NCBI GenBank assembly: GCA_963693365.1
Contig: CAVNZM010000007.1
Coordinates: forward strand, 6,507,962-6,571,961
Direction of reading: 5' to 3'
DNA length: 64,000 nt
From: Amoebidium appalachense
Taxonomy: Eukaryota; Protista; Ichthyosporea
In this document: positions 8,253 through 53,537 of the stretch, one piece after another
Position numbering within the stretch: position 1 is the first letter of the stretch
Layout of the letters: each line of letters opens with the position of its first letter
Translations under genes and position numbers: made by a program
The notes under the pieces: model-generated
Database searches by the model: none
Told to the model about the DNA's origin: nothing
The model's input: the letters and a program-made list of their open reading frames with translations, nothing else

Positions 8253-8292
<40 letters not shown>

Positions 8293-12529: not shown

Positions 12530-12602
12530 TGATCCCGACGGGATTTGAACCCGCGACCCCTCTATCTCCATTCGAGTGCTCTACCAACTGAGCTACGAGA
12601 TC
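12530..12602 (-). tRNA. tRNA-like sequence in TRIM LTR (73 nt, anticodon loop ATGGAGA)
   Basis: Same cloverleaf with intact A box (TAGCTCAGTTGG) and B box (GGTTCAAATCC), T stem GCGGG/CCCGT, followed by TCTTTT. Confidence 0.75.
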
Positions 12603-15802: not shown

Positions 15803-16043
15803 GTTCCGGGGGAGGGGGAAGCTGGGGTCACTGAGGGAGGGGGGGGGACAGTATCGGTCCCCCCCAGGTTGCAGAGAACCTTCACCCTCCCCCACCCCAG
15901 GTTAAGCTTCCCTTTGCCCCCTCACCGCCCCGATACGTGTGGGAGCCGGGCATCGTCGTGGGTCCTCAAGACAGCGTCGAGGTGGTATGGCATGAATGTT
16001 TGTGGGGTGATTCTACCAAAGGTATGAATGGTGTGAATGTTTT

Positions 16044-19000
16044 GTGGTTGGGGGAGGTTCCCCAGCCACAAGTGGATGGTCTCAGTGTTTCTTGTCCCAA
16101 CCCGGTGTTTATTCTAACCACACCGGAGGGGGTTTCTGTGCCATTGTTTCCGGGAGGGGGGGGGGGACACACACGAGTAAAGGGGGAAGGGGGAGGAAGG
16201 CACAGACACATAGAAACACACCACCACAACAACATACGACGGTTGCAGACACACCTACACCCACACACACACCCACACATACACCAAACACACACACACC
16301 ACCCACCCACACACCACACACACACACTCCACCACCACCCACATCACATACACACCCCACCCCACCCGTGCAGGCACCACAGGTAGGTATGTTGCACGTA
16401 GGTATCGAGGGTGTGAGTCTTCGTGGGCAGGGATTGGGTGTGAGTGATGATGTGTTGCTTGAATTGGAGGAGGATTTAGTTGGTTTTAGCCGGCATTATA
16501 TAGACGTATGGTTAGCTGATGGTAAGTTGAAGGCTGTTGCTTTGCTCGATGGAGGGGCTCAGGTTAATTGTGTGCATGCTTCGTTTATTCGTCGTTTTAA
16601 TCAGGCCGGGGGGGAAATTCCTATTTTAGATGCTTCTAGCACAGCCTTAGGTAGTGCTAATAATAGTAGTATGTCTGTGGAAGGTGTTTGTGTGTTGCAG
16701 TGTGAGATAGGTGGCCAGGCTATGCATGTTGCTTGTTATGTGGTTAAGGATTTAGCTCAAAGTGTTTTGTTGGGAGCCCCATTTTTCCGTAGACATGTGA
16801 ATGCTTTGTTTGAACGTACGAATGTTTTAGAATTGCAGTCCGGCGTTAAAATTAAAACCCATGATGGGCTCGACGGTTATCAGTCTGGTGCTAGAACGGT
16901 AGCTGAAGTAGTAATCGAGCCTTATCAGTGCCAAACGGTACGTGTCCGGGCCGGCAATCATGTTAGGATAGGGGGATTTAGGGGTTTTTACTCCGAAAAC
17001 CCCATTTCAGGAGGTGGCCCAATGGACCCTTAGTAGGGTATGGCCGGATAAGACAATAGAAATAGAATTAGTGAATCCGGGCATCGAGCCTATAGTGATT
17101 AGGTCAGGTGTTTCCGTCGGTAGTTTCACTAATGAGATTGGTAGTATAGAGGTCTCTCTTATTACCCAAAAGGAGGATGCCGGCTCGAAGGGTGACTCAG
17201 GAGGAGGGGGAACAACTTTATTTAACGTTAGCCACCAAAATGTCACCCGACACGATGGGGGGGGGGACCGGGACAGCACCGGTCCCACTCCCCCGACCCC
17301 CAAGAGGAAGGAGGGTCACCCCGGGTGTGAGAATGTGCAGGCAGGGGGGGAGGGTGTTGGTCTAACCCGTGGATCTGACGGGTTAACCAACACCGTGGGG
17401 GGCAGGGTGGCCACAGACCTGGCCCCCCACATACATGCACTAACTCATCAGGAATTGCCCGGGGGCATTGGTGTGCCGAGCCGGGGGGAGGGGGGTGCTA
17501 AGGGTGACCGCCTATATCCGGAGGTACCTCAACCTCACCCCGAGCAGCACCGATGTAATACAGGAGGTGAAATGTTAAGTGGCACTCCGGTGAATAAGGA
17601 TGCATCCACTTGTGATGGGGGTAACCCGGAGTTAGTATTGCCGTTTGGTATGAAGGAGGGGGATTGGACGGTAGAACAGAAAAAATTGCTAGCTAAGTTA
17701 TTTGATAGGACTCGGTTTGCATTTCTGGCCGATGATAACGAAGTAGGCTTCGTTAAAGGGTTTGAAATGCAGATCGACACAGGTGATAATAGGCCGGTAG
17801 TGATGCCTAGCTATAGAATGGAGCAGTATAAATTGTCGGATGCGCTAATAATAGTGAGTGATATGTTAAAGAAGGGTCATGTGGAGCATAGTTCGAGTCC
17901 GTGGAGAAGTCCGGTGCTATTGGTTAAGAAGCCCGACGGGTCTTGGCGTCTAGTGAACGATTACAGGGCTCTGAATCGGCTCACTAAGGCAGACCAATGG
18001 CCTCTCCCTAACATAGACGAGCAGCTTTCACAGCTGCACGGCTATACTCACTTTGCTAAACTTGATTTAAAAGCAGCTTTTTGGCAGATAAGGTTGGAGG
18101 AGAGCAGCAAGGAGAAGACTGCCTTTGCACTGGGGGACCAGCTGTTCCAGTACAAGGTGGTGCCGATGGGTTTGCTCTCCTCTCCAGCTATGTTGTGCCG
18201 GGTAATGTATAAAATTCTCCACCCTCATTTGGATGTATGCCACCCTTATTTGGATGATGTTTTAATTAAAGGTAGGTCATTTGAGGAGTTAGTTAATAAT
18301 TGTGAAAAAGTATTTTTAGCTTTGGGTGAGTCTGGTCTCCGTATTAGCGGTAGCAAGACTGTGATTGGTGTGCCGGAGGTTAAGTTTTTAGGTCATATTG
18401 TGTCTAGTAATGGTCTTGCCCCTGATCCGGAGAAAATCCGGGCCATAGTTGAGTGGCCCCGTCCTCAGACTGACTCACTCAACTAAGGCAATTTTTAGGT
18501 TTAACTAACTATCTTCGTCGTTATATTAAGGATTATAGTATGCTTGCTTTGCCGTTAACTAGTCAGACGGGGGGGGAGAAGAAGAATAGAATAGATTGGA
18601 ATGTTGATGCTGTTTCTGCTTTCGAAAAGCTTAAGTTAGCTTTGCAGTCTTCGAGTACGCTTGTTCATCCTGATTTTTCGGCCGGGGGGGGGATGTTTAA
18701 AGTTCGGTGTGATGCAAGTAAGGTTGCTGAAGGGGCCGTGTTATATCAAGTGCAGGAGGGGCAGGATAGGGTGATTGCTTATGCTAGTCGTTCATTTAGT
18801 AAAAGTGAACGTAGATATAGCAATCCAGAGAGAGAGTCCCATGCTATCTTTTGGGCAGTCTCACAGGCATGAAGGTATATACTCGCAGGCAGGACGTTTG
18901 AGGTCTACACCGACCACAAGCCCTGCCTAGCCATGGCCGGCACCACTCGTCTGGTCAACGAGAGGATGCAGAAGTGGGCCGCGGCTCTCGGTGAGTTCTC

Positions 19001-21099
19001 CTATAAATTGTTTTATGCCAAGGGTGAAACAATGGTTGACTGTGATGCTCTCTCTCGTGCTGCTTATATTTTGTTTGAAGAAGAGAAGGAGGGGGAGGGG
19101 GGGGCTAGTGAGAGACGGGGGGGGGGAGGGGGGGAAGGGGGGGGAGAGTGAGCAGAAAGGAATAGATGCTGTGTCTGTGGATGTGTCTTCTTGGGTTCCG
19201 GGGTTGCTTGCTTATAAGTGTAGGAGAGGGGGGAGGTATTTGTCAGTGTCTGAGGTCGGGACCGAGTCTCATGGCTCGGCCCCTGCCTTAGCACCTACGG
19301 CTTTGATCTTAGCTCAGGAGGAAGATGTGTTGATTGGTCTGGTTAAGAATTATTTAAAGGGGCCGGTTGATTCGATTAAATTTAAAAATAAAAGGCAGAT
19401 GATTAAGGTAGCTAAGTTAGCAAAAATGTGTCAGGTAGAGCAGGATTTAGTTTATCATTGTTCTGGGCCAGACGGACACCGAGTTTGGGTCCCGACGGCA
19501 CTTGTGCCTGAGGTTTTGCATATGGTGCATGAGCATCCCATGGCTGGTCATTTAGGTGTAAATAGGACGTTGCTTCGTGTTAATCGTTCGTATTTTTGGC
19601 CGGGTATGAGTAGGGAGGTGAGGGATTATGTGTTGTCATGCATGCATTGTCAGGAAAGGAATGAGAGTCCCCACTCTCGTTCCCGCCCGTCGTTTATTAG
19701 GGATTTTAATGTTCGTATGTTTGAAAGGGTAGCAGTGGATGTGGTCGGTCCTTTTAATTCTACGGTTGAGGGTAACACTGTTCTTGTTACCGTCACCGAT
19801 GTGGCCACTCGTTGGGTTGAAGTTTTTCCTCTCCCCACTGCTAATGCCGTTTTGTTTGCTCGTATTTTTGTGGATGAAATTTGTCTTAGGTTTGGTTGTC
19901 CTCGTGTTTTGTTAACGGATAGGAGTCGTGTGTTTTTAAATCAGTTGGTGTCGGAGGTGTGTAAAATTTTAAGGGTAGCTCATATCACTACGTCTGCATA
20001 TCACCCTCAAGCAAATGCCATCTCTGAACGTGTGCATGCAGTGTTTCAGAAGTCCTTTGGCAAAATGGTGGATGTGGAGGCTAATGATTGGGATCATATG
20101 TCTAGGTTTATTGCTCATTCTTATAATTCTACCCCTCATGCTGTGACTGGTTTTTCTCCGTTTTATTTGGTCTATGGGCAGGAGGCTATTAGTTTGTTAG
20201 ATACGGCACTTTTGCCGATGGGGGGGGCTGACCGACTAACTTATCCCCACTGGACTGAGTTCCGGGAGCAGCTACTAACCCGGGCCCGGGCTGCACGTGA
20301 TGCAGCTCTGGCCCGTACACAGCAGGCACAGGCACGTACAGACGTGTCCACACGTCCGTTACGTGAATTTGCCGAGGGCACTTTAGTTTTAATTAGGGAT
20401 CATACTAGGAAAAAGAGATATAAGCAGGAGCAGGAAGGTAAGGGTGAAGGTGAAGGTCTTCGTAAGTATGGTAAGAAATGGTTGCCTCTTTTCATTGGCC
20501 CGTATAAAATAGTGGCTAGGTTAGGTCCGACGGAATATAAGGTGCAGAGGTTAGATAATGAGAGTGATGTTAGATTTTATAATGTAGATGATATAAAGGA
20601 ATATTATGATAGGGCCCTTAGGGTTAAACGGCCGGAGGGCCGTCGAGTGTTAGATGCATTCACCCCCGACTATGACGGGTCGGTGGATGTATCGGAGGCT
20701 GCAGTAGATAAAATTATGGATAAAAAGGTTATCGAAGGTAAGGAAGGTAAGGTAAATTATTATTTAATTCGTTTTGAGGGAGGTTATCAGGAAGATCAGT
20801 GGTTGCCTGAGTTTCATTTGGATTGCCCGTTTTCTATTCGTGCTTATGAGGCTAGATTAGTGCAGAGGGAGTTGCCTAGTGCTCCCTCTCGGCCAAAGAG
20901 AGTTATTCCTCAGTTTAATCGTGGTGTGAAAAAGTCGGTGGGGGAGGGGGCCGGGGGGGGAGTGATGCAAATACACGTAGACACACGGGGGGAGGGGGAG
21001 GGGGGGGAGGAGACCGAGGAGGAGTGTGAACGTAGTCGTAGGAATTTAATTTATTATCATAGGTGTCTCCGTAGGTATCAAGCTTATGGTGTAGATTAA
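16044..21099 (+). pseudogene. pol: G1 pol (PR, RT, RNase H, IN, chromodomain) with frameshifts and stops
   Basis: PR LLDGGAQ; RT SPWRSPVLLVKK/DYRALN/YLDD; RH CDAS; IN HxxxxxxH...CxxC, DVVGP, TD, YHPQAN; chromo VDKIMDKK...YYLIRF...DQWLPE. Confidence 0.92.
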
Positions 21100-21949
21100 T
21101 TTATTATTTTTCTTCGTAATTTATTTATTTAATTTTTTTTTTGGGAGACTGATTAGTCTATGTCTTTTTAGGGGGTGTTAGATGTAATGTGACTGAGGTG
21201 GGACTCAGCTTTTCCGGGGGCCGGGGGGGGAGTTGACATATACTAATCCGTCTCAGCAGATTAGCCTAAGTCTACGATCAAGATCGGGGGGGGGGGGGGG
21301 GGGGGGTGGCCCGGGTCCACAGATCATCAAGATCAAGTCCGGGGCCTCAAGATAGCTGAACAGCTGCGTGCATCTTGCCTCTGCCGGCGCAGGGCATTGG
21401 ACCACGTCAGCCGGGACAGCCGTCCAATAGAATTCTAATTAGTGTGTAGGATAGATCGTAGGAGGACTTAGGAATGTGATTGTTCGGGCAGAAGCCCTTT
21501 TGTAAGGATTGGCAAGGTTTGATAGTATATGTTGCCAAACGTATTTATATATGTAGATGTAGAGGAAAGGGGGGAGGGAGGGGGGGGGAGGATAGTATGA
21601 AATGTATATTTAGACTCTGCGGTGCCACTAGGGGGAGGGTGAGGGGTGAGACTTGGATAAATATATTAGTTGAGTAGATCGACTTAGCTCGTGCAGGCGC
21701 ACGATAAAAGTAGATCGGAATGTTAATGGAATGTGGCATCGTAGGGGGCCAGGTGATGATGATCTTGTAGGGCACGGCCTTGATGGCCTCAGTCGTAACT
21801 TAGACTCAATCCGTACGGATCTAAGTTTGCCCGTCGGAGCCTGGTCTTAATAAACTTTACCGTTTTTCTGTACACGTTCGTTCCTTTTCGTGTGTGTACA
21901 CTTAGTAGAGTGCCGCGTCTCTAGTACACATACATTAGGATACGACAGA

Positions 21950-22974: not shown

Positions 22975-25900
22975 TGTCATCTTCACTTGATTCTCAGCAA
23001 GACTTAGAAGTTGAGTTTTGTATTTATTTATTAGTTGTTGTAGTTTGTTTCCTTTTCCTTTCTTCATTTCTTTCTTTCCTTTCCGTTTCCATGTACACGA
23101 CATCTTAGATCTGTGTACGTATCGACATACTTAGCTCGCGCACACGTATTATAATTGTCGTTTGTGTCAAAATCTATATATGTCCTCCAATCATATCTCG
23201 TTTGTATTTTCCCAAATATAGTAACTTACATTCCTTTCTCATTCCTTTCCCACGACGTAGCATTGTGCTATGTTCTTCAACTATTAGGAATTATTATAAT
23301 TATATTTAGACGTGTTATGATAAGAACATGTATAAATGTATGTTATGAATTAACAGTTATATAAGTGGTTTCATTTTGTTAAATGTTTCCGTGCCTTTAT
23401 TAGAAGTTTCTTTCATTAGAGGATTGAGTTTTATATTCTATGTGTCGACAGACATTTTAATCGATATATTTTACACTCATAGTTTTCGTCCTTTTGATTG
23501 GTTTATCGTTTCACATTCCCAAGTATAAAAGGGATTTCATCTTGAAATAAATCATAAGCAGTCGTATTCATTTCCTATGGTTCCAGAAATCGTCCCTCCT
23601 CTCCGGTTGTGTTTTTCCCGTGTGTCTCTGTGTTGTGTATATCATAACACCCATCTGTGCTCTCTGCTTCTCCGTTTACCCACACAAAACAACAGGTTTA
23701 CGGCCCCTTTGCACGCTAACACACAATCTCTCTACAACCGCGAAATCTCTAAGTCTTACTGCTTCAATCATGACTGACAAACCGTCGTATATCAACCTTC
23801 CAATATGGAATCCGTCCGAGAAACGAGACGAGAAACGTCTTAATTATTTCGAGTGGGAGCCACTCATTCACCGGTTCATTAGAACAACCATTGCCGAGAA
23901 ATTCGTTGACGCTATCAAGAGGCCACAGTGGGTTGACGGCGCTGAAGCCAACCAGTGGCTAGGCTACACCACCAAGGACTCCTACAAGAAAGCTTCCGAC
24001 GTCCTCGACCAGATCCTCAACCAGTCCGTCCACCCGACCGAGCTCTACGACTCCGGCCGGATGCAAGACGGTGTCCACGGTGGTGAAGTCTTCCACAACC
24101 TACGTATGGCGTATGTAGCAGAGAAGGAGGCCCGAGGCACCCAGATTCAAGTCACCTTCGAGGAGCTTGAACTACGAGACTACCCCAACGTCACAGCATA
24201 CCTCACCCGTCTCCAACGTCTGGCCACGACACTTGCCTGCCTCGACGAGCCCGTCCAGCACAAGGATGTCGTACGTAAGTTCTTCCTCCACCTCAGGAAG
24301 AACACGGCCCTGGTCTGCTCCGACATTGAACGTCTCTGCTCCGACTACTGGATGAACAACAAGGCCTACCCGTCCTTCAACATGCTCATCAGTGACATCC
24401 GAGGAGCTGAAATCCGTGCCGGCCTCATCGATGCAGGCACTGGTGCAACCGTCAACAACCGTCCCCTCCGTGCACTCCAGAGCAGAGTGCTTCCTCCCGG
24501 TGACCTCCGTAACCGTATTCCTCGACGTGAGCATACACCTCACCGATCCCCGTCCCGTTCCCGTGATCCTCGTCCTTCCTCCAAGTCACCCGGCCCCCGT
24601 TCAACTTCCCCTTACCACCGTGGTAACAGGGACAACCGTAACCGACAGCACAACACCAAGAAGGTGGAGTGTTCCTACTGCCATGAGCCCCACCACATCA
24701 CAGCATGCCCGGAGCCTGGCTGTACAGTTGCTCGTCGTGCCAAGCAGGAGAAAGGCGACAAGAGTGTGAAATTTGCACTCATCTCCTCCACCGGCACACC
24801 TGACAGTAACGACCCCGTCTGGGACAGTGCTTGTAATGCACACATCTGCCCCATCAAGGAGTATTTCTCCTCCCTTACCCCGTGTCCTCCCACCCCCATT
24901 CACGACCTCGGCACCGTCAATGCCAAACAACGTGGCATCATCAACATGACACTGCACTACAACGGCCACCCAACACCGTGCAGCATCAATGCTTACTACG
25001 TACCCGAGGCACCGTCTTTCCTCGTGTCTACCTCCATGGCCTCAGCTGCCGGCCTCCTAGGTCATTGTGACGATACAGACAACCACCCGTCGTTCCTCTA
25101 CAGCCGTAATGGTGACATCATTTCAGATCTCACCCCCCTCGACGGTCTCTAGTACTACATCACTGACTATGTGATTGAGACTCCTAAACACCCGGGGGTC
25201 CAAGCCTACACAGCAAGGACTCAACCACCCGCCGACCTCACCCTTTGGCACAACCGTCTCGGCCACCGTGCCCTCTCCACCGTCACCAGGATGGCCAAGG
25301 ATGAGCTTGTCATCGGCATGCCCCCCTCCCTCAAGTCACCCGACAACAGTGACTGCTTCGGCTGCATGTCTGGCAAGACCACCAAGGCCCCCTTTCCCGG
25401 CACCCGTTCCAAATTCACCATTCCCGGTGCTAAGTGGCACCTGGACTTCTTCGAAGCTCCCTGTGCTTCCTACGGAGGCTACAAGGTTGCTCTGGTGTGT
25501 GTTTGTGATGCCACCGGTTACACCACCGTGTTCCCCCTCTACAACCGTGGTGAAACCCTCAGCCACATTCAGTCTCTCGTTGAAACCATCGAACGTCAGA
25601 CACCTGAGATCGTCACCCATCTTCGGTTTGACTCCGGCTCTGAGTTCACCTCCAAGGACACCGAGGCCTACTGCAAGCAGAAAGGCATCATCATGGAGTT
25701 TGCCCCCGTCGACACACCACAACACAACGGTGTTGTTGAACGGAAGATGAGAGAACTGCAAGAGACAGTCCGTTGCTTCCTCCATGCCGACAAGGACCAA
25801 CCTCTCTCTCCCAAGTTGTGGGTTGCTGCTCTCAAGCATGCAGGCTACATCATCAACGTCACACCGTCATCTGCTGCCAACGGCAACACTCCCTTCGAGG

Positions 25901-28203: not shown

Positions 28204-29444
28204 TTTCATCTACAGTGGTCTTCAAGTAGGTTGGGGCACTGGCCAGTGGTCTACACATCACCGTGTAGAGACGCCTCCCAACGAAAGTCTACTGCTGTCT
28301 TCATCGATCTTCAGTGTGTGCATCTTCAGTGGGGATTTCTTCTCCACCATCCGTCGTTTATTTATATACCATCATATATATAATGTATAAATCATTAGCC
28401 ACCAACACGTCACACATACACTAGTTGTTTCTCCTATATATATATTTATATATCGTCATTGGCTACCGTCATCTTCCGAGTCTTCAGAGGCAACCGTCGT
28501 TGTGTGCTTCTTCCGTTTTGGTTTTCTTCCCCGGCTTGCACCTCCAAGTCTTCTCCAATTGTCTTCTCGAGTGGGGAAACTTGACTGTGACTTCACGGCA
28601 CCTGCTTCTTCATGTGTGAGAGTCTTTACATCAACAGTCACATCAACAAACTTCACGAGAACCCAACTTCCAACCCTTGAGTGGGGATGTCATCTTCACT
28701 TGATTCTCAGCAAGACTTAGAAGTTGAGTTTTGTATTTATTTATTAGTTGTTGTAGTTTGTTTCCTTTTCCTTTCTTCATTTCTTTCTTTCCTTTCCGTT
28801 TCCATGTACACGACATCTTAGATCTGTGTACGTATCGACATACTTAGCTCGCGCACACGTATTGTCGTTTGTGTCAAAATCTATATATGTCCTCCAATCA
28901 TATCTCGTTTGTATTTTCCCAAATATAGTAACTTACATTCCTTTCTCATTCCTTTCCCACGACGTAGCATTGTGCTATGTTCTTCAACTATTAGGAATAA
29001 TTATATTTAGACGTGTTATGATAAGAACATGTATAAATGTATGTTATGAATTAATAGTTATATAAGTGGTTTCATTTTGTTAAATGTTTCCGTGCTTTTA
29101 TTAGAAGTTTCTTTCATTAGAGGATTGAGTTTTATATTCTATGTGTCGACAGGCATTTTAATCGATATATTTTACACTCATAGTTTTCGTCCTTTTGATT
29201 GGTTTATCGTTTCACATTCCCAAGTATAAAAGGGATTTCATCTTGAAATAAATCATAAGCAGTCGTATTCATTTCCTATGGTTCCAGAAATCGTCCCTCC
29301 TCTCCGGTTGTGTTTTTCCCGTGTGTCTCTGTGTTGTGTATATCATAACACCCATCTGTGCTCTCTGCTTCTCCGTTTACCCACACAAAACAACAGGTTA
29401 TGGGCCCAGCACGCTTCCACTGCGCTTACCCACACAAAACAACA
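22975..29444 (+). mobile_element. Ty1/Copia LTR retrotransposon (half-tRNAiMet-primed type)
   Basis: LTRs 22975-23694 and 28688-29395 (TGTCATC...CAACA), PPT TGAGTGGGGA, GGGGG on both flanks, and an extra 49 nt at the 3' end (see findings). Confidence 0.95.
23770..28156 (+). pseudogene. Copia gag-PR-IN-RT-RH polyprotein, disrupted
   Basis: CSYCHEPHHITAC, WDSACNAH, LWHNRLGH, FDSGSEF, PQHNGVVER, HQLDVSTAFLN, LYGLKQA, YVDD, SDAD, RTKHI, ADIFTKPL. In-frame stop at 25150-25152 plus several frameshifts. Confidence 0.93.
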
Positions 29445-34950: not shown

Positions 34951-36093
34951 ATGGCAGGCCATGTTGAACTCACATAAATTAGCACTAGTAGTAAAAACCA
35001 AGCTGTGTACATTTTAATTGAGCATCTGGAGGGGCTGCTGTATAGCTATATGATACCACTATCATTTGACAGATATGTGTAATATAGATGTTAATAATTT
35101 TCCTGTAAAATTGTAAATAATAACTGGTGGCACGGCCTTCTGGATACATATAACAATGGATGTTTTATGGGGCCCCGTTTCGTGGGAATGCTGGCATACT
35201 TGAAAGAGAATACATAAGAGAACGAATCGGATGCTGATGGGGTACAACAACTTGCAGAGTTTGTGGGTGCCTGGAGCGGCACTGAGGGGATTATAGTAGG
35301 GATAATTATATTGCGGAAAGCTGAACAGTGTAGGGTACTATAGACGGCGCTGAACATGCCTGTATGAAGTCTGTACATATGCGTGTATGTGGTATATTAT
35401 ACCGGATATCTAGTATGGATGTACACAGGTTGAGATATACGCACACGTGTACATGTAAGTATACCACTGTGTTTGATCTTAGGTAGGCCAGTATGCATGT
35501 CCCCCCCAGTCTTGTGCGCATGAGCATGGAGTTAAACATATGTGCACGTGCAGCTTGCAGGATTATTCATGGGAAAACAGATATAATAGTCACATGGGAC
35601 CGACACGTAGACTAAGTAGAGGAACCATGAGCGTTAAGTTATAGTTTTATCATGGGAAAATATGCAAGTAGCCGTGAGGTATGACTGTGGAATGCATCGT
35701 TAGGCAAGTACTGTCACCCGATTGGCTCACTAAGTTTATTGGAACCGTGATAGCCATGGGACAGAACCGTGAACCGTATGTGATTGGCTCTCGTAGCCAA
35801 AAGGACATACCGATGCGCATGTCTGAGCCGCTGTGCGAGCTCCAATATAAGGGCATGTCGGGGGCTTCAGAGCTCACTCAGTGTGCTCGGCTTACTAGGT
35901 GTAAGTAGGACTAGCACGTAACTTAGCAAAGCGTGGTCTAGTCAACCCCGTTCATTTACAAATATATTGTTTGTCACAGACACACGATCATTTTATACAA
36001 CAGCTGAGCTACACCCCCTGCAGTGCTAGTTCTTGCGCTGCAAGTGTGCTCGTTTCAAAGCAAATACTATGTTTTTAGTTGTTTGGGTTCTAA

Positions 36094-37965
36094 CATGTCT
36101 GGCCACCTTGGTGACGACAATGCCGGCCCTAGCGGCCTGCATGGGGGCGAAGCAAGAAACGCCGACCTTATTTTCCTTCAAGAACTCGGGTATAATGTTC
36201 CCCTTTCTCCCCCCGGCGCTTCACCGTGGTACCCTCCTGGAGCAGACATTCCGTTGCTCGACCGTGTTTACTTCCGTACACACGACCTGCAACACGGCAA
36301 TCAATACTGCTTCTCTTTTCGTTCAGGGGAAACCGACTACGGCCAATCATTTGACCCCGAAGACCTGCCACCTGAAGACAATCGACATTCATCAGTCGAC
36401 CTTCTCCACGGGCTGGAACTGTCGAGGTCAACGTGAACGCAAGCAGAGGCACCAGACGCCCTGGTACGCGCCCTAACGGAGTATGCAAATTTGCACAACA
36501 AAACGGGCGTGAGCCTGGCAGCTTGGTGCTGGTGCGTTCTTGGGTGTCTCCTTCTGTTCATGCTGCTGGCATTGTTGGTATCGAAGTTTGCCAGCTGTAC
36601 AGCGCGCACGGCAGGCACTCACCATGCTCCACCAACAACTGCTCGCCCTCGCGAATGTATTCACTTCCAGGCAAAACTACGCGTGCCTTTCAGGGCAGTC
36701 TTCCCACATAACTAAGTCACATGAAATTATCAATCAGTTAGTGGCTCTTAGTCGTGGTGAGCTCGACCTAGTTGTTACTTATTATGGTAATTGGGGCCCT
36801 CGAAAATTTCATCCAAGCATGCTCCCCTCGTGGGTTCGTGCCGGACGGGGCCCCCGTAAGAACTCTGGCCGAGGTGGTAGGGGTGGGCGTGGTGGTGGCC
36901 GGGGGGGGCATAACAACCCCCCTCCTGCTGCCAACGAAAATGGGGATGGTAATGCAGGTGGCGGCGGCCCCCCACCTCCCCCGGACGGTGGTGCTGACGG
37001 TGGTGCCGGTGGTGCTAATGGTGCCGGAGGTGCTAACGGTGCTGGTGGTGCCGGTGGTGGTGGTGGTGATGGCGGTGGCGACGGCGGTGACGGTGGCGAT
37101 GACGGTGACGGTAACGACGGCAACGGTGACGACCGGGAGGGGAAGGAAAAGATTCAACACATCCCCTCAGCAGCAATTCAGTCTCGTCCTATGCTCGAGG
37201 CAGATGCCGATATCGACGAATTCTACAAACAACTCCAACATCATTTAATTTTCTTTTGTATTATGGAGTTGGTGGGCTTAAATCGCACGTTGATGTTTAT
37301 TCGTATGTGCATGGGCCCCGGGGACCCCCGAGATGCTGCCGATAACGTCGACCTTTCCACGTGCACCGGCATGGACGATTTTTGGGCTAAGTTCCTTGAG
37401 AAGTATTTAGACAAGGAACGTAAGGAGGAGCATTTAGACGAGCTGAACAAGCTTCGTTTTATGCACACTCGGGCCTCGATAAAGACATTCCACAAGAAAT
37501 TTAATTGCATCGTCTCCAACACGGGTCTCAAGAACATGCCCGAGGTCGTGCTTCATCATTACCAACGTACCCTCAACGACTACCCGGACCTTTGTTCGGA
37601 GGCCCGGGCTGCCACCACCCTCAAGCAAGCCATGGCCCGTGTCATCCGACGGTATGAAGCTGATGTGGGTGCTCACAATTTAAAATGTAACCGTAATGTG
37701 GGTGGTGTAGATGAGATGGGTGGTGGTAGTGGGGGGCATGGTGGTGGTGGTGGTGGTCACGGGGGTGGCCACGGGGGTAGTGGGGGTAATGTTCAAGTTG
37801 GTGGTAAGGGTAAATCTAATGGGGGGGGGCAAATGGGCTAAGGACGATAAAAAGAAAGATAAGAGGGGGCCCAATTGTTGGGCATGCAAGCAGCCGGGGC
37901 ATCGTTTTAAAGATTGCCCCACCCGAGCTGCCAAGAAGAACAAGGGCAAGCAAAGTGAAAAATAG
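36094..37965 (+). pseudogene. gag: G3 gag (disrupted), Gly-rich with zinc knuckle
   Basis: ORFs 36023, 36540 and 37711; CWACKQPGHRFKDC knuckle; capsid-like FLEKYL...L.KL.F...SI..F..KF. Confidence 0.8.
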
Positions 37966-40900
37966 ATAATTGCCGGTGCTAGATGCACGGATACGGCATG
38001 TATTGCACATTGTGACCCAGTGGGTCACGAGAAAGTAATTAAAAATGTGCCTATACCAAGTGCTTCTGCCCCGGCTTCTTCCGATATCCCCCCCTCCGAG
38101 CCCCTTTCCCCCGACCCCCGACCCCCCACCCCCCCACACCTATCCCCCCCCACAAAGAAACTTCGAACACTCGATAGAATAAGAAAAGTGTTCGATATAA
38201 GTGCCATATGCAATGCAGGAAGACGTATCTATGTTAATGTTACGTTGAGTAATGAAAAATACTTTGCATTGTTTGACACTGGGGCATCATTCACGGTGGT
38301 TAGTGAAGCTGTTTTTTCCCGACACACGCAGGAGTTTGCTTTGCAACCCTCTGATGTGATTGTTACTTCCGTACGGAAAAACGATAAAGCTCTAGCTGTG
38401 AGTGGTGAAGTGATGCTCCCGTTATGCCTCGGTTCTCAAACATTCATGTGGCCTTGCTTAGTAATTAAAAATATTAAGCATGACATGATTATTGGGAACG
38501 ATTTTGCCAACAAACACATTGCCACCACTAATCATCAAGCACACTCACTAACACTGGTGTCGGGGATGGTGGTGCCGACGTCATCTTTGCACACCCCCTA
38601 CACAATGTGTCCTGTTACCGTCAAGCACGACACCACCGTCAAATCTGGCTTTGGATGTGTATTACGTGCAACGGTGCAGGTGACTGCTGCTGCTGCTGCT
38701 GCTGGCACCCTCGGTATCTTCGAGCCTACTCGTGAATTTCGAGATAAGTTCCCCCCCACCATCTGTGAAATTAGTGTGGATAAATCTATTGCTGTTGTGT
38801 GCGAAAATGGTGTGGGTCCGGATTTGAACGTGTTCGGTACCATCGGTCATTTCGTTCCTACGAGCCGACATGAGTACATACACGAACTGAGTGTTTTGCA
38901 AGCCGAACCCCACCCCAGTCGTACACAAACCGTCGTTGGTGCAATAGCGCAGTGCATCAGGTGGGCAACGGGGGGTGGAGAAGGTTGCCTACCCAATTCA
39001 CCTCCGGCCGTGCCACCGGGCCGGGTGCCTACCGATAACATGTGTGGGCACGAAGGGCATGTGAGTGGGACACGAGGCGGTCCGATACACTCACCGATCG
39101 ACCAATCAATGTGTGCCGTTGATCATGAAACCCCCCCCCCCCCCCCACGAAAAATTTCGGAAATTTCGGGTGGGGGTGCACACGATGCCGGCCAGGCTCC
39201 CCACGGTTTTGATTGGAATAGGGTGCCTCAGATTATGCTTCCGGATGTCAAGAAACTATTAGAAGCACACTCTTGTTGCTTCATCACTACGGACCCCGAC
39301 GAATTTCCTCAGATAAAAGGATTCACCATGCACATAGACACGGGAGATAACCCACCGATTCGATTAAAACAGTGGAGGTTGGAACAAGTGAAAGAGCAGG
39401 CTGCAAAGGAGATCGTAGAGGATATGTGTCGTAGAGGGCAGATGGAACAAGCACACAGTCAGTATAATTCACCCACCTTCGTAATACGAAAACCAAACGG
39501 AAAATACCGTCTGCTGACTGATTTTCGTGCTCTTAACAAGCAAATTCGAAAATCTGCCTGGCCCATGCCCAACTTGCAACAACAAATAGAGAAGTTGGCT
39601 GGGTATAAGTATTTCTGTAAAGCTGATATGTCGGGTGCCTTTTACCAAATACTGCTAGACGCTGAGTCACGTGAAAAAACAGGATTTTCTGTGGCTGGTG
39701 TGCAGTATCGTTATTGTGTGGCACCACAGGGGCTAAGTACTTCCCCGTCCCAGCTAGCATCTATCATGACACAGATTTTGGCCCCTCTGGCCGATGACGT
39801 GGTGGTATATGCCGATGATTTAGCTGTGGGTGCACACACCGAAAAAGAATTAATACAGAAGCTTGACCGACTTTTCACCCGTCTCGGTGAATATGGAGTT
39901 AAGCTCGATGGGGCAAAGACATACATTGGGCTCACGGAAATACCGTTTTTGGGTTGGATTGTAGGTGTGAATGGCATTCGGCCCGACCCGAAAAAGGTAC
40001 AGGCAGTGAAAGATTGGCCGGTACCAAACACACTACACCAACTCCGGGGTTTTCTGGGTATTACTTCCTATCTCCGCCGTCACATTTTAAATTATGCAGA
40101 GCGAGCCCGACCCATGAATGCCGAGTGTTACGGAGAAAAACACCGACGTTTAAAATGGACGGACGAATTAGATCGCTCGTTTAAAGATTTAAAATCGACG
40201 TTATCGGAGGAAGTGCTTGCCCTGCCCGATCTTTCCCCCACGGGGGGTCAGTTTCTTATTCGTTGTGATGCTAGTCGGTTCTCGGAAGGGGCTTGCCTGT
40301 ATCAAAAACAAAAAGATGGCAAGTTCCGCACAGTGGCATATGCCTCCCGGATGTTTCAACCTACCGAACGTAGGTGGAGCAACATCGAACGAGAAACGCA
40401 TGCAATCTATTGGGCACTGAAAGAGTTTAGGGTGTACGTGTATGGTCGAGTGAATACTATTGTGGAAAGTGACCATAAGCCCTGTCTTTCTCTTAAAGGT
40501 GTCAAACGGATAGCAAACGAACGGATCATGCAACGGTGGGCTTTGGAAATGCAGGAGTATGATTTCGATCTATACTACCGACCTGGCCCTACCATGCGCA
40601 ATGCTGATGGGTTAAGCCGTATAGGATATATTCTGCATGAGAACGAAAACATACCACTGGAAAGGTGGGATGTGAAAAAGGAATTACAAGAGGTTCTCAC
40701 AGCAGATTTATCCGAGCTTAGCTCGAAACCAGCCGAAGTGTTTGTTGATTGGGGTGATGCACTCGAATTCTACACATTTTCGATCCAGACCGCTTGAAAT
40801 GTGCACAAATTTCTGCACTCAGTCAAGCCGGCCTGCCCTCCCTTTCTGCACTCGGTGGTGCCGGCTATCAGAAGGAAGCAATTATGATGGCACAGGGGGG

Positions 40901-42575
40901 GACAAAATGTGTAAGGATATAATCACGTGGCTCCGGTGGCTTGCCTCCCTCGATGCCGAGGCCAAACGGGAATGGCAGGCAGGGGGGGAACGAGCTGCAC
41001 ACGGTCTTAATCTTGACTATTTCGGATACAAAAAGGTTAAGAAAATAGCACAAATGTGTGTGATAGAGGATGGCAAGTAGAGTTGTTGAACGTTGCATTT
41101 GGGAAAGCGCGGGGGGGGGGGGGGGGGGGGAGGGGGGGGGGTACATACCAATTGGTGCTACGGAGTAGCCGATAGCCGGCCGTGACGATTTCATTTGTCC
41201 GTTTGTTCTCAAACCACATGTGCACAATCGTGTTTTTGGGCAACTTGGTCCCAAAATTGGTCCGACGGGGGGGCTCATACTGGCATTGAACGAACTTACG
41301 AAAGATTATACAATTACTATTGGCCACGCATACACAAAGATATCACTGCTTATGTGAATGCCTGCACACAGTGCCAAGGCCGTAACGATAACCCACACTT
41401 GAGAAGTAGGCCATTTGAACAGAGACACGAAAATTTAAAAATGTTCTCTCGTGTTTCTGTTGACCTTATGGGTCCGTTCACAGAAACGAAAAATGGTAAT
41501 ACCCTCATTTGTGTGTTTATGGATATGGCAACGAAGTATTTAATCACTGTGCCCATCCAATCTAAGCATGCCGTTAATGTTGCACATGCACTCATGAATG
41601 TAATTTGCTATATACACGGCCCCCCTCGTACACTCTTGAGTGATCAAGGATCCGAATTTCTCAATGAGCTAATTGTTGAGGTTTGCCGTATAGCAAATAT
41701 TGCACAAGTGAGCACCTCTGCATATCACCCACAAAGCAACAACGGTTCCAATGAACGGTCTCATAGATTTATTAATAATGCACTCTCAAAGTACGTTAAT
41801 TATGAGCACACTAATTGGGACACTCTGTTGCCGGTGGTTACACATGCATACAACACAACAACACACAAAATTTTGCAATGTACACCGTATTATCTTGTGT
41901 ACGGGCAAGAAGCAACACAATTCCCTGACGTTGCGGCCCTTCTTAGCAGTAACCACCCGGCACTCAAGGACCCAGAGTGGAAGGCATACCGGCGAGAGTT
42001 ACTAGCCCGTTTGCCTCTGCTCCGTGCTGTGGTCCAGCAACGCGCCGTACGAGAGCCCCCAGGCCCCTCGGTGGCTCGTGAATTTAAGAAGGGTGCACGG
42101 ATTCGTGTTCGGAATCAAGCCAAAAATATCGGTGCCTGATGTACGGTGGCTTACGGGTTACGAAATCGTCAAAAGGGTCGGCCCGGTCACGTACGAGATC
42201 CAAAGCTTAGCAACTATGAAGAAATCTAAGTGGCACGTGGACGATATTCAGCTTGAATTGAGTGAGCAAGATAGAATTCGGCCTCAAGATCTCTCTCACC
42301 TCCCGGACACGGGCGATAGTCACAATTTCAACAAGGTTCTGCCGGACGAGTGGGTGGTGGAAAAGGTGCTTGACGTAAGAATTCAGAAACGGCGCAAGCA
42401 ATCCACCCCTTACAAGTGGTACCAGATCAAGTGGGCAGGCAAAGATGAATCATTCACCTCTTGGGAGTGTGAGAAAGACTTAGCCTGCCCGGACAAGATC
42501 CGAGAGTTCCACCAACGCAGAGGTGACCTTGCATCGTTCCACGGATACATTGACTCATTGTGTGGAGCATGGTGA
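37966..42575 (+). pseudogene. pol: G3 pol (PR, RT, RH, IN, chromodomain) with frameshifts
   Basis: LFDTGAS, DFRALN, YADD, CDAS, SDHKP, AHTG...CTQC, DLMGP, SDQGSEF, YHPQSN; chromo WVVEKVLDVR...YQIKWAG...SWE. Confidence 0.93.
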
Positions 42576-44287
42576 CGTATGTCGAGGACGACATACTTCT
42601 TTTTACGGTGGGGCGTGTGGTATATTATACTGGATATCTAGTATGGATGTACACAGGTTGAGATATACGCACACGTGTACATGTATATATACCACTGTGT
42701 TTGATCTTAGGTAGGCCAGTATGCATGTCCCCCCCAGTCTTGTGCGCATGAGCATGGAGTTAAACATATGTGCACGTGCAGCTTGCAGGATTATTCATGG
42801 GAAAACAGATATAATAGTCACATGGGACCGACACGTAGTAGAGAAACCATGAGCGTTAAGTTATAGTTTTATCATGGGAAAATATGCAAGTAGCCGTGAG
42901 GTATGACTGTGGAATGCATCGTTAGGCAAGTACTGTCACCCGATTGGCTCACTAAGTTTATTGGAACCGTGATAGCCATGGGACAGAACCGTGAACCGTA
43001 TGTGATTGGCTCTCGTAGCCAAAAGGACATATACCGATGCGCATGTCTGAGCCGCTGTGCGAGCTCCGATATAAGGGCATGTCGGGGGCTTCAGAGCTCA
43101 CTCAGTGTGCTCGGCTTACTAGGTGTAAGTAGGACTAGCACGTAACTTAGCAAAGCGTGGTCTAGTCAACCCCGTTCATTTACAAATATATTGTTTGTCA
43201 CAGACACACGATCATTTTATACAACAGTGTACATGTATTAAAAGTAAATCAAGAGCGGAGCCAAAGAACTTATTTAATAAACAAAAGGTTTTATTTGTGG
43301 AATTTATTGACATAAATATTTTTTCTGGGTAAACACGTAGGATGGGTGTTCGGTATCAACATAACCATGTAGGCTTCATTTCGTGTTTTAGCAGTTCGCG
43401 GTTGGCTTCCCGCACACGGGCACCTATTAGCCAATCAAAACATTAGATTCCACATATCACTAGACCGAGTTTTGATTGGCTCGGATCAGATGTGGCACAT
43501 ATCACTAGATCGATTTTGATTGGCTCAGATCGGTAGGCTTAGGTATATAAGCACGACAGTTTTTAGCAGATCAGTGTAAACATCTGTACACGCCGTACAT
43601 GTTTACTATTACGAATATACTGTACATATCATAGTGATCACGTAGATATTGTGTACATACGATCAGATCAATATCACACGCGACAGCCGCGGGCTGCGGC
43701 TCACGACTGAGCCGCGGCGCCGGCAATATGCAGTGGCCGTGCAGTCAGTATGAACCAATAGAATTCGAGAACCGCTAGGATAGGAATGCAAGTCTCATCC
43801 ACTACGGAGGCGACATCTATAGCTAAACGAACGGAACCAATAAGGAAATCAGACCCAGTTGCATAAACCTAAACGGGCTTAAGTATTGACCAATCATTTG
43901 CCACAAAGTTATCCTTTTAGTTAGCTTCATGTTATTGGTGCACTGTGTGCACATAAAGACGACCGCACTCTTCTGACTGGTCAGAAGTCACGAAGGCATC
44001 AATGCCACCCATCCAGATGATCCGGAACCTGGGGGCTATATAAACAAGCCGTCCCAGTACGGGGGATCACTCTGAACGAGCACATTAAATAGTAACCTGG
44101 CCGCGTGTGCCTTACTACCCGTTCTCTGTCTTTATTCTGATTCAGTTGTTCTCTGCCTTATCCCAACTAGTTCAACTGTTTACAATCAGCAAGCTACAAA
44201 CACATCTTCTGTGTTTAGCACCCACAGCCTTACAGCTATATATTCCTTTTCATTCTCCCTATCTTTCTCTCCCGGACGCCGGTCAGC

Positions 44288-45826
44288 ATGCCGCCGAAAA
44301 AGCGCCAGGCCTCAGCCACCGCCCCTGCCGCGGCACCTAAGCGCCTACCCGCAGCGACCTCCGCCACAGGCTGACCAATGCTCCCGCGGGCCCTGACGCG
44401 CCTCCGGAGGCCCATACCACCACGGACCCTCCGGCTACTTCTCCCAGTCTACTCCTGAAGTCCCTCCTCAGGCCCCGCCGTCCCCCGCCGATGACTTCTC
44501 AAGACGCCGTCCTTGCCGCCCTCACCGCCATCAGCACCCAGATGGCTGGCGTCCTGGCCGCTCTCACCAACCGCGACCCTCCCACGCCCCCCGCCGCACC
44601 CTCCGCACCCGGGGAGCTCCTCGAGGTTTCCCCGGGGCTGCATCTCGGCCCTGACCTGGACCTACCTGCCCTGCCCGCGCCCCCCATTACAGGTGAGAAC
44701 ACTGGCGACATTCAGCCGGGCACACTGCCGCTTCCCCCCGCGGATGTGCTGGCAGATTTGCGCGCAAATCGTTTCGCCGACCTGTATAAGTTCACCCCTG
44801 CAGCCCTCCTGGCCCCATCCAAGAAACTTAAGGTCAGCAGCTGCGCATGGCCGACGACGGCAGCATCGTGGCTTTTCGCAATGACAAGCCCGTTCCCCTG
44901 CGTTCACTCCTCATTTGGATCCAAGCTTGGACCCATTACATTGCCGCCAAGCACCACCTCGACCTCCCCACGGACAAGGACGTACTTTGGACTCAGCACA
45001 TCACTCGCCTCAGCACCCGATACCCGTGGGCCCAGATCCACAACTATGACGTGTATGCCCGTACCGTTGCCCACCAGCAGGGTCGGGCTCCGATCGAGTG
45101 TCCCAACCTGCTCGCCCAACTCCCCAGGATCTCCTCCTGCCACCCACTCTGCTCCGAGTCATCCCGGACGCATGTCAGCGCTGTGGCTTCCCCAACCACC
45201 CCAGCGCGGCCTGCCCCATGTACCCCAAGCCCGGCTGTGGTCTTGACGGCTTCAAGCCGCACACAAGCCCGGCGGGGGCCAAACCCCCAACCGCCCTGGC
45301 CCGCAACCCGGCCCGGCAAAACCGGCCCGACCCGTGGATCTACCCGCGACGCACTGCAGGAATTTCCACATTAACGGTCGGTCCTGTGCTAAGCAGCCCA
45401 GCCCCTTCTCCCACGTGTGCCCGCTCTGCTCTGGCACACCCCCCCGCAAAGACTGCAAGCACAATGCCTAGTCTACTCGCACACACACAGATAGAACATA
45501 GGGGCTAGCCTAGAGCTAGGACACACGGGTACAAGGAAACGGAGCTCGGGAAAACGGGCCAATAGGGCTGAGTACAAATTTTCGCACGCCAACTGCGGCG
45601 CCCGCGCGCGCCAAGAATAAATGTCCCTACACAAAGACGCTATTCTGGCCACTGCACATAATTTTACTCCCCCCCCCATCCCACGAGCCTCCCTCCCCCT
45701 TGCACTCACCTAGCACTCCCTCCCCCCCCCTTCTTCTACCTCTGTGTCCGCCCACACCCCCACGTGCTCGGGCATCCCCTGCACAGGGCCCCGCTGCCCT
45801 CCCTGCAAACCCTCCCTCGGGCCCAG

Positions 45827-45858
<32 letters not shown>

Positions 45859-46303
45859 GCTGCCGGGATCTCCCCGAGGTGCCCCACCCTTGCTAACCAC
45901 ACCTTCCCCCGAGGCTCAGACCCGGAGGCCCGCCCGCTGCCCCAGCACCACATTGACACCTCCCGCCTCCGGGAGCTGCTGGCATCCTACCCAGACCAAT
46001 CATTCGCCGCACAGCTCCTCCACGATGTCGAATTCGGTGTCGACATCGGCTATCGCGGCCCCTCCACCTCTCGGGTGGGCCCCAACCTCCCCACCACCCC
46101 GGCTGCTGCTGCCGCTATCACGGCGGATATTGCCAACGAAGTCGCCCTCGGCCACCTGCGCGGCCCCCTCTCCCCGGACCAATTCTTCGCCGAATTTCCG
46201 GTCCACCGTTCCTCCCCCCTCGGCGCCGTTACTAAAAAAGGGAACCCCCCAAGTACCGTCGAATCCACCACCTCTCATGGCCCCGGGGCAGCAGCGTCAA
46301 TGA
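44288..46303 (+). mobile_element. Truncated DIRS/Ngaro-type (tyrosine-recombinase class) retrotransposon: gag plus N-terminal RT
   Basis: gag motifs WIQAWTHY...ITRLSTRYPWAQIHNYDVYAR and a Cys/His-rich tail. RT start SYPDQSF...FGVDIGYRG...NEVALGHLRGP...SPLGAVTKK, then (frameshifted) KYRRIHHLSWPRGSSVND. No YR domain present. Confidence 0.75.
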
Positions 46304-47238
46304 CAGCCTCTTCTACAGATCGAAGTGTGCTATGCCGCCGTTACTAAGGTTGACACCTACTAGTATACTGGTGCTTCATCAACCCGCTCTGCCATACAAC
46401 ACCTGTTGTTTTCCTTCTGAATCAGAATCTCTCTCCGCTTTATTTCTAGCACGGCTACGGCTGCACTCTACCCCTCTGGCCGCTTATGCTAACTTGGTCC
46501 TTTTGGCTGTAGCTGCCTAGCTCGCCACACGTGTGCTTGGTGCCCCGACCCTAGACGGTTGGAGCAACCACCAACGACGGTGCCCTGAGTCTTAACACCT
46601 CGGGCTACCTATGCACACTTACTGACTTACACACACCACACCACAAACCCCCACATATATACATCATTGAGTGCAGTGGTCTTTGAGTAACTTGGGGTCC
46701 TGGACAGCGGCTAACACATCACTGTGAATTGGTGTGAAGGCTTGCCTCCCAACGAAAGCCTTCTACTTCATTCTTTGATACGCACACACACACACGTACT
46801 GTACGCGACACGTGGCTTTACGCACTTGACTAGGCTCCGCTGAGAATCCTTCTACATCCCTCTTTTGGGCAATACCCGTACAACTTCATTGTCACCGCCG
46901 GGTGCTACGCGTCACACCGCTCGGCGTCGTACAGGTTGTGGCTGATGATCCTGATACAGTAACTATGTCGGACTTAGTAGGGACTCCGAGCCAGACTACA
47001 GTAGTCACGGCCGCGTACAGTAACTGTCGGACGGTCAACCTGCCCATCCCCTCAGGGCCCTCCCCCCGCCCCGCCCGTGACCTCCCCTCTCCCCCCCCCC
47101 CCCTCCCCCCCCCCCAGGCCCCCCCCCGGCCCTGACACACTGTGGCACACTCACACAAACACACAACCTGGGGCGGCCCCAGGCCTCCCCCAAGCCCCTT
47201 CCCCCTCCCCTCGAGCCTGCCCAGTGCCCACCCCTCCC

Positions 47239-51512: not shown

Positions 51513-51585
51513 CATCATCACCATCACCATCACCATCACCATCACCACCCCATCACCATCACCTGTGATGCACCCAATGATACAG

Positions 51586-52482
51586 TAAGGAACTCAAGCT
51601 ATTTCAAAATTTTCTTGCCGCCGAATTTGCACAAGAAAACCTCAATTTTCTCTGCCGTGTCAGTGCGTACAGCAAGACCCCCTCTGCCTCTGTTCGTGAT
51701 TTTATCATCGACACTTACGTGCGAAATGGATCCCCACACCAGGTATGCTCCTGTTACCACCCGTCCCCATGCCTGGTAGAATGTTGTGTACTTTTTACAA
51801 TATATTGCACCTTCTGTAGGTTATGGCACCCTTAAGTTACACCTGTTATTACGGGTTTCCGCCACCCTGGAAACTTTTCATTCTACAGTTATATAAGATT
51901 ATTCAGGTTCCCCGGCACTGACAAGCTTTGTGTGTCCCCCCCCCCCCCCCCCCCCCCCAAAAAAAAATAAAATAAAAAAATCATGCATTCATTTTTTTAA
52001 TTTATGGTGTGTGCTTGTATTGCATACCCGTAAAATAATCATTACAGATACCCTCTACGAACAATAAGAACCCCTGCCAATAAGATTTCCCCCCGGCAAA
52101 ATCAGTTTTTAAGATTCTGTCCCCCAGCTAGTTTTTGGGATGATCTTATTGGTGGACGGATGGATAAATCATGCTGGATGGGCCCCGCCATTAAGATTCT
52201 GACCCCGACCCCCCAAAGAATTTAAGATTCCGCCTCTCGGCCACATTTTGGGGGGGTTCTTATTTGCGGACGGTATCTGTATTAACAGCTTGGCTCTGCA
52301 CACCAATGTGTGAAATTGTGCAGTGTTTCTCTTCGTCAGTTAACGTTGCACTTTGCAATATCTGTTGCATAGACCCTTCCCACCCCCAGTCCCCACCCCA
52401 CACCCCCTCCCCGCCCCCCGTGTTTTTGGTCACTGCGACGGTGATTCAGTAGCTGCTACGGTCGGACTGTTTTGCCTGGTTG

Positions 52483-52571
<89 letters not shown>

Positions 52572-52842
52572 CGGGGTAAAGACCATAAAAACATAACAGC
52601 AGTCTCCGTGTGATGCACTGCAAATCAAAGGTACCACGGTTGTTTCTGTGACCCCATCCAAGAGGAACCATTTTATGTTTTCTCGAGTTCCCAACTTATA
52701 GTATCCGATGCTATTATCTGATTGGACAATCCCTAATAGGTTAATCTGTCCGATGACATGCGACAACAGCTTCAAAATAGCGCCCGCCAGGAGGAGGTCG
52801 ACCCACACATGTTTGAGGTTGCAGCACACCACATTGCGGTAT

Positions 52843-52887
<45 letters not shown>

Positions 52888-53395
52888 AAAAAAAAGTTTT
52901 CAATGTGCGATGATACTCTTTATGTGTGTTTTGTGAATAAACCCCCGTTCCCTTCCCCCCCAAAAGAAAATTGCAGTGTGCACACTCGTGTGTGTTTTTG
53001 CACTCTGCGTTGTGTTGTCCGTTATGGCTGTGTACTTCGACCTCTATAATGCATTCTAAACCCCACAGAATAGCAATGTGTTACCTGTTGTCATTTTTTT
53101 TATAAGCAGTTGTTTGATTTATTCTCGAAGCACAAACAAGCGAGATGTTACAGATGAAACAAACAATTTCTGTGGCCCTTGGGCACCAAGAAAGTGACGA
53201 TTCGTATAAGCACAAAACCGTAACAAATTTCCATTGTATGTAGCTCATCCTTAACCCGCTTTCCACCGAGACCTCCTATCTTTCTCATCGATGCCTTCTG
53301 CGTGTGGTTTTCCATAGATTGGTAGAGTGAGTCCACATACATGACCCCTTTTCACGAATTAACGAATTGCCGAGTGTTTCTCACCAATTTCCTGT

Positions 53396-53430
<35 letters not shown>

Positions 53431-53469
53431 TCCCCCACCCCCTCCCCCCAGCACGCGCGCGCACACCCA

Positions 53470-53537
<68 letters not shown>

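Follow-up and report, generated by a model that had tools for sequence, protein, structure and literature searches.

A chromodomain-bearing Ty3/gypsy element whose putative primer-binding site is complementary to the 5' end of a tRNA

The window, the whole stretch of 64,000 nucleotides that was analysed, contains a complete-looking Ty3/gypsy element on its forward strand, bounded by direct LTRs that begin with TG and end with CA. The 5' LTR (35388..36002, 615 bp) and the 3' LTR (42616..43226, 611 bp) are identical at 604 of 609 aligned bases, with 8 gap bases. The five bases preceding the left LTR, GTGTA (35383..35387), are repeated after the right LTR (43227..43231), which gives a target-site duplication (TSD) within the 4-6 bp of Ty3/gypsy elements, and a purine-rich tract (42605..42615), assigned as the PPT by its position only, precedes the right LTR. 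The initial annotation of this DNA had described the 5' LTR end at 36002 as TSD-verified, and it is indeed fixed both by the second LTR copy and by the GTGTA duplication on the two sides.

Between the LTRs, a gag region (36096..37970) with a CCHC knuckle at 37876 is followed by a pol frame (37966..40797) that encodes protease, reverse transcriptase (RT, with YADD) and RNase H, and then by an integrase with a zinc finger and core that ends in a C-terminal chromodomain (41186..42575; Chromo PF00385, E 1.3e-9), all on the forward strand. The frame of this copy is broken in gag and around the integrase, and the integrase and chromodomain lie in two frames. The order of protease, RT, RNase H and integrase is that of a Ty3/gypsy element, and the best solved-structure match of pol is Ty3 of S. 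cerevisiae (7q5b, 4ol8; E ~1e-50), which has the same domain order. The chromodomain at the integrase C-terminus, a feature by which chromoviruses are recognized, bears out the earlier label of a chromodomain gypsy element.

Word searches recovered only relatives at 25-40% identity to the element, and a profile search recovered six proteins at 41-44% identity, four of which have a Pfam chromodomain match. We placed the element in a tree of 48 rows (33 from earlier matches, 13 new matches and the two gypsy elements of the window), in which it falls in an RT-RNase H clade of its own with 11 rows (100/100), outside the 16-row clade of fungal and plant chromoviruses (100/99). A forced union with three fungal rows was rejected (AU p 0.001), the groups having been named after the tree was seen. 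The RT-RNase H sequence is not nested within the fungal and plant clade and, given the unsettled deep branching, the element may hold a sister position to the fungal and plant chromoviruses. With its RT set apart from the fungal chromoviruses in this way, the likeness to Tf1 raised in the initial annotation stands as a possible mechanism and falls as a statement of ancestry. The second gypsy element of the window, element B (13926-21947, forward strand; LTRs 13926-14644 and 21234-21947; TSD GAATG), belongs to the same 11-row clade and, within it, to the same starred 5-row clade. The proteins P0112, P0123, P0131, P0139, P0152, P0153, P0167, P0171 and P0196 belong to a gypsy clade (100/100) that lies outside the fungal and plant chromoviruses, and a Pfam chromodomain match is present in four of its seven scanned members.

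The first 16 bases after the 5' LTR (36003..36018, forward strand) read GCTGAGCTACACCCCC, a sequence that occurs once in the window and that we regard as the putative primer-binding site. That no TGG directly follows the LTR had been noted before, and we confirmed its absence over 20 bases; the canonical site for a tRNA 3' end, with TGG 0-5 nt past the LTR, is therefore not present. The initial annotation had recognized in these 16 bases the complement of tRNA nt 1-16, ending at nt 1. We scored this likeness with a tRNA-start profile made from 294 distinct tRNA 5' 16-mers from fetched loci, leaving out the tRNAs selected by our own search patterns. The reverse complement of the site scores 16.3 bits, which ranks it first among the 127,968 16-mers on both strands of the window and above both tRNA-like genes that the window contains. 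The match is also in register, since the score is high at offset 0 only and lies between -16 and -24 at offsets 1-4. The last two bases of the LTR, CA (36001..36002), lengthen the complement to tRNA nt 17-18 for tRNAs whose D loop has CUG at 16-18. The feature at the primer-binding position is thus real and sharply non-random.

The 18-mer that includes this CA, written with R at nt 5 (a degeneracy introduced after a variant at 36014 had been seen), matches 85 loci of a viral collection. ARAGORN calls a tRNA in 74 of them, and 73 of these tRNAs begin on the first matched base. Of two candidate sources for such a start that had been named earlier, tRNA-Ala and tRNA-Cys, the former is upheld by 64 of the 74 called tRNAs and the latter by none. 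The exact 16-18-nt matches are bacterial- or phage-type tRNA genes. Among 31 tRNA-Ala loci found with a eukaryote-style pattern, the match reaches nt 14 in 20 (9 exact and 11 with A5), nt 15 in one plus two with A5, and nt 16 in none. Because these eukaryote-style matches stop at nt 14-15, the primer in the host may extend no further than nt 15, or may form a G-U pair at nt 16. The best match of the site among 514 predicted tRNAs begins at nt 1, and not in the anticodon arm where a half-tRNA primer would be cut.

Other arrangements of the site found no counterpart in the sequence. The complement of a tRNA-Ala 3' end is absent from the LTRs and leader, as is the complement of a CCA end, for which near-matches occur within the element only at 37055-37755, in a Gly-rich gag frame; a bipartite site that includes a CCA-end complement was ruled out on this basis. 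No perfect palindrome of 10-14 bp is present at the site, where only a 6-bp CAGCTG spans the LTR junction (36001-36006). A scan of 36001-36060 alone against Rfam gave no match at E<=10, 18 bases being too short for a scan of this kind.

We aligned contigs of four runs to 35300-36500. Two of the DNA runs contain hundreds of short variant contigs over the LTR and leader, and the family is therefore probably multicopy. A 7144-nt contig of run X7, which comes from another sample, has the same 16-base site and departs from the present copy at 20 places in the 480 bases that follow; every one of the 31 places at which this run has a substitution is among the variant rows listed, and none of them lies inside the site. 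The sole variant in the site among the 40 of 68 rows listed is 36014 C>T, seen at a depth of 190 of 2663 in run X3 and 41 of 41 in run X17. This change turns the complement into the tRNA-Ala start with A5 that is found in 31 of the 85 18-mer matches, which fits the use of a second tRNA-Ala, although only weakly, because nt 5 varies freely in tRNAs. Conservation across the family, which had been proposed as a check on the site, holds for the X7 copy, whereas the variant counts among the same 40 of 68 rows (1 in the 16 site bases against 9 in the next 84) show no significant excess of it. A further suggestion of the initial annotation, that CTGCAGT at the end of the site could pair with the anticodon loop of a tRNA-Cys, needs a T at 36024. 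This T is private to the present copy, position 36024 being C in every covering contig of the four runs (11, 3, 1 and 1 contigs), and the pairing was dropped.

The primer-binding position of element B (14645-14666) has no TGG, no clear self-primer and no match to a tRNA start (score <= -7.5 at offsets 0-4); its first six bases, ACTAGT, form a palindrome. When metagenomes were scanned for the site preceded by an LTR-like end, 16 loci were returned, none of which is a post-LTR site and none of which has an RT match; 15 of the 16 lack a tblastn match to the element's proteins, and several are tRNA variants or tRNA fragments. The one locus with a gypsy integrase and chromodomain upstream (L157) was rejected as a chance match, since the match lies inside a Ser/Pro-rich frame that runs past the chromodomain and neither an LTR nor a purine tract was seen. 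A scan of viral sequences for the site gave 25 loci, none with an RT match. Protein searches of viral contigs yielded 0, 2 and 0 loci, the two being at 29% identity and without upstream DNA, and those of genome contigs yielded nine loci at 30-46% identity. Four genome-contig elements with LTR pairs (~33% identical) have the canonical TGG site. A site complementary to a tRNA 5' end is thus seen in one family. Eukaryotic gypsy elements, among them these four with LTR pairs and TGG sites, lie within bacterial MAG records of the genome collection (L167-L169 and L171, and L166, L170, L172 and L173), and these loci are probable contamination.

We propose, with moderate confidence, that minus-strand synthesis of this element is primed by a 5' fragment of a host tRNA-Ala, predicted to stop at nt 15-16 within the D loop. 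In LTR elements the 3' end of the primer sets the LTR end, and every cycle copies the site anew from the primer. The element RNA would first pair with the tRNA 5' end over 16 bp, or over 18 bp if the CA of the LTR is included. This pairing is computed at about -34 to -39 kcal/mol, compared with -18 for the best self-duplex of the transcript, and in co-folding calculations the 16-nt fragment displaces the self-duplex (-81.2 kcal/mol, against -55.2 for the transcript alone). The tRNA would be cut in its D loop, either by a host nuclease before packaging or by the element's RNase H after annealing, and the fragment would need a 3' end with an OH; cuts of the RNase T2/A type leave a 3' phosphate, which must be repaired. 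RT would extend the fragment into U5, and plus-strand synthesis would later copy the primer as far as tRNA nt 1 and then run off, so that the site would be rebuilt in each cycle. Such run-off copying would explain the perfect 16-base match, its stop at tRNA nt 1 and the variant that matches another tRNA-Ala start, a perfect match with that stop being the trace to be expected of a copied 5' fragment.

Several parts of this scheme have precedents, which we give here and below as they stand in the portions of the cited reports consulted. Plus-strand synthesis has been shown to run into the tRNA (PMC5371799). Fragments of 14-16 nt from tRNA 5' ends (tRF-5a) are a described class (PMC11628509), and D-region fragments in Arabidopsis are mostly 19-20 nt long, with Ala-AGC among the most abundant (PMC5389709). 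As for the enzyme that cuts the tRNA, it could be a host nuclease or the element's own RNase H, the domain of which is present in pol as a candidate primer-cutting activity; in Tf1, the element's own RNase H makes the primer cut (PMC7175516).

A copia element of the window, whose LTRs are 97% identical, bears a trace of a tRNA of its own. Past its right LTR (28688-29395), the forward strand at 29396-29444 has 30 tRNA-complementary bases, a second copy of the last 19 bases of the LTR, and GGGGG. The 30 bases (29396-29425) are the complement of a Met-anticodon tRNA from about nt 10 to 40, that is, from the D arm to the anticodon, with a weak Rfam match (model 9-39, E 3.8); we take this tRNA to have an initiator-type layout. 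The arrangement looks like an integrated plus-strand intermediate in which a half-tRNA primer was copied until synthesis stopped near nt 9-10, and we infer that a methylated nt 9 blocked it there. Since this copia element carries a copied 5'-half tRNA, internally cut tRNA primers are likely to operate in this host. At the left LTR of the same copia element, the site (23695-23710, forward strand) and the half-tRNA copy of the right end disagree at several bases, and the site has GTA at the anticodon position.

The alternative that fares best against a tRNA fragment, and that we nevertheless consider unlikely, is self-priming of the Tf1 type, in which a transcript starting near 35880 would fold its own 35881-35891 onto the site and be cut by RNase H after about nt 12, the likeness to a tRNA being an old capture or a coincidence. 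A motif scan of the LTR found two TATAA and three TCA[GT]T motifs, and the start near 35880 is predicted from the TATAA at 35846-35850 together with the initiator-like TCAGT at 35878-35882. The segment 35881..35892 could act as a self-primer or as a masking strand; it lies just behind the TCAGT, 34 nt past the TATAA, and its bases 35881-35891 can form 11-12 bp with 36003-36014, including one G-U pair and interrupted by one bulge, in a duplex that stops precisely at the site's LTR-proximal base. This is a stronger self-pairing rival than the one put forward in the initial annotation, LTR 35860-35876, whose longest Watson-Crick run with the site is 6 bp against a shuffle mean of 6.2. The pair probability of the 35881-35891 duplex is 0.92-1.0 in folds that run from 35870-35881 to 36080, but it falls to 0.13-0.65 in longer folds. 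Of 1080 shuffled 22-nt tiles only 3 reach its energy of -17.7 kcal/mol, and of 2909 real ones only 18, and yet this energy is ordinary when the whole LTR is searched, where 10 of 60 shuffles reach it. The start itself is a prediction from motifs. Moreover, copying of a self-primer should keep the self-duplex perfect, whereas here it contains a bulge and a G-U pair; nor does it explain why the bases CCCC at 36015-36018, which it leaves unpaired, match tRNA nt 1-4. The separation of the RT from the fungal chromovirus group likewise argues against this alternative.

Priming in Tf1 needs three duplexes, which form a 'pretzel' (bioRxiv 2022.12.06.519325), and a second pairing between LTR and leader recalls it here. 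LTR segment 35907..35920 could form a flanking duplex with the stretch of leader that immediately follows the primer site (36019-36033), to which it is complementary. When only R-U5 is searched, this leader-side duplex is equalled in 1 of 500 shuffles for the present copy and in 5 of 500 with the letter of the other copies, compared with 95 of 200 for the whole LTR, so that it is modestly significant; the U5-side duplex is at chance level (291 of 500 shuffles). The leader-side duplex competes with two local hairpins. Both it and an 8-bp leader hairpin that could form in its stead (36019..36042) start at 36019, the base past the partner of tRNA nt 1.

This geometry admits a more elaborate version of priming by tRNA-Ala, which we put forward only tentatively. 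The 5' end of an intact tRNA-Ala would dock in the place of the self-primer, with the duplex or hairpin at 36019 stacked on its nt 1, and the element's RNase H would cut the D loop; self-cutting in the style of Tf1 would thereby be turned on a host RNA, by a gypsy lineage outside the chromoviruses. If docking and cutting by the element's own RNase H proved true, LTR elements would have a fourth class of primer, and the element itself would be a source of 5' tRNA fragments.

It is improbable that the site is a fossil, that is, a tRNA 5' end copied in once by template switching in an element now primed from another RNA or a nick. The bases at 29396-29425 of the nearby copia element indicate that copied tRNA sequence can stay attached to an RT product when the latter integrates, and element B lacks such a site, both of which would suit a single capture; on the other hand, the site adjoins the LTR without a gap and breaks off precisely at nt 1, the LTRs and leader show no alternative primer site, and the site is unchanged in the X7 copy despite the differences in its next 480 bases, a point that alone is not significant. 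A role as an accessory or regulatory box, bound by a whole tRNA or by a 5' fragment with a silencing role while synthesis proceeds from another 3' end, strikes us as quite improbable. It would require a second 3' end, whereas the LTR end marks the primer 3' end, here tRNA nt 16, and neither the LTRs nor the leader contain the complement of a CCA end, even though bipartite Ty1/Ty3 sites that bind the D and T arms have been described (PMC5371799) and, in Arabidopsis, the primer regions of gypsy elements are bound by 5' tRNA fragments (PMC11962134). A chance likeness to a tRNA start is very improbable, for although the site is seen in only one family and many junctions were inspected for the initial annotation, the top score of 127,968 window positions falls at the one place where a primer must bind.

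Among described systems, the proposed use of a tRNA-Ala 5' fragment is best read as a form of cut-tRNA priming; it would resemble half-tRNA priming in its cut 5' piece and Tf1 in its geometry. Half-tRNA priming, known from Drosophila copia, yeast Ty5 and the plant elements Osser, Bryco, Gymco-II and Bianca, along with the internal-tRNA sites of Candida elements, likewise involves a 5' tRNA piece with an internally cut 3' end and no TGG (PMC6317226, PMC5371799, PMC4139406), and internal Arg and iMet tRNA sites have been listed (PMC4139406). In those systems the cut lies in the anticodon arm, whereas the present element is Ty3/gypsy, its predicted cut lies in the D loop and the whole fragment would be paired back to nt 1. 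In the portions consulted, a survey of plants reports half-tRNA primers only in Ty1/copia lineages (PMC6317226).

Tf1/sushi elements (Tf1, Tf2, Tj1, Tosmo and Tcn1) likewise have the site against the LTR, a short cut RNA 5' end as primer and a chromodomain integrase (PMC7175516, PMC4600332, bioRxiv 2022.12.06.519325). They differ from the present element, whose site is perfectly complementary to a tRNA start and forms only an imperfect self-duplex, and whose RT stands outside the fungal chromoviruses in a tree without the Tf1 sequence itself. Two further groups, dictyostelid Skipper, with a polypyrimidine in the site's place, and Cryptococcus Tcn2-5, are gypsy elements that also lack TGG and whose primer is unexplained in the parts of the reports consulted (PMC5006619, PMC7175516); the present site is not a pyrimidine tract and has an identifiable tRNA-like partner, Skipper being compared by description only.

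Fragments such as tRF-5a and tRF-5D are likewise D-loop fragments of 14-16 nt, and 5' fragments of tRNA-Ala are abundant in Arabidopsis (PMC11628509, PMC5389709). In what we consulted of the work on HTLV-1 RT primed by tRNA fragments, the only fragment primer named is a 3' fragment, with no 5' D-loop fragment (PMC4307339), and a 31-nt 5' tRNA fragment binds canonical sites, but not as a primer (PMC11962134). A plant-wide survey distinguishes three primer types for LTR retrotransposons, namely whole tRNA, half tRNA and self-primer (PMC6317226). In keeping with the initial annotation, which knew of no described element that primes in this manner, our search of the literature turned up no element whose primer-binding site corresponds to tRNA nt 1-16, the search covering sources other than Repbase, subscription papers, figures and supplements (among which Fig. 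3 of PMC5006619 and the additional files that accompany PMC6317226 give lists of sites that may bear on this point). Since the plant survey compared sites with tRNA 3' ends first (PMC6317226), such sites may have been filed there as 'no PBS'.

If true, priming by a D-loop 5' fragment would be a further primer type, and 5' tRNA fragments would act as primers and not as regulators only. Such priming would also escape the block of canonical sites by 3' fragments, as we infer from PMC7773854. It would offer a starting point for families such as Skipper and Tcn2-5, gypsy elements with unexplained priming.

The remainder of the window contains several other features. Two tRNA-like genes on the reverse strand (12159-12230 and 12530-12602) lie in a tandem repeat of ~370 bp and are followed by T runs. 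In both, the anticodon is GGA (Ser), the variable arm is short and the anticodon stem contains a mismatch; they are possibly Phe-derived pseudogenes or a SINE-like unit. Open frames occupy 44341-47100, with no Pfam match in the two that were scanned; part of this region presumably resembles a DIRS-like retroelement. Amid long CA and G/C runs lie exon pieces of an RGS-domain gene (51581-53600, forward strand), one exon of which found no scored homologue and matched only generic eukaryotic RGS clusters below 0.9, and exon pieces of a bZIP-like gene, recognized by eye (7142-8976, reverse strand).
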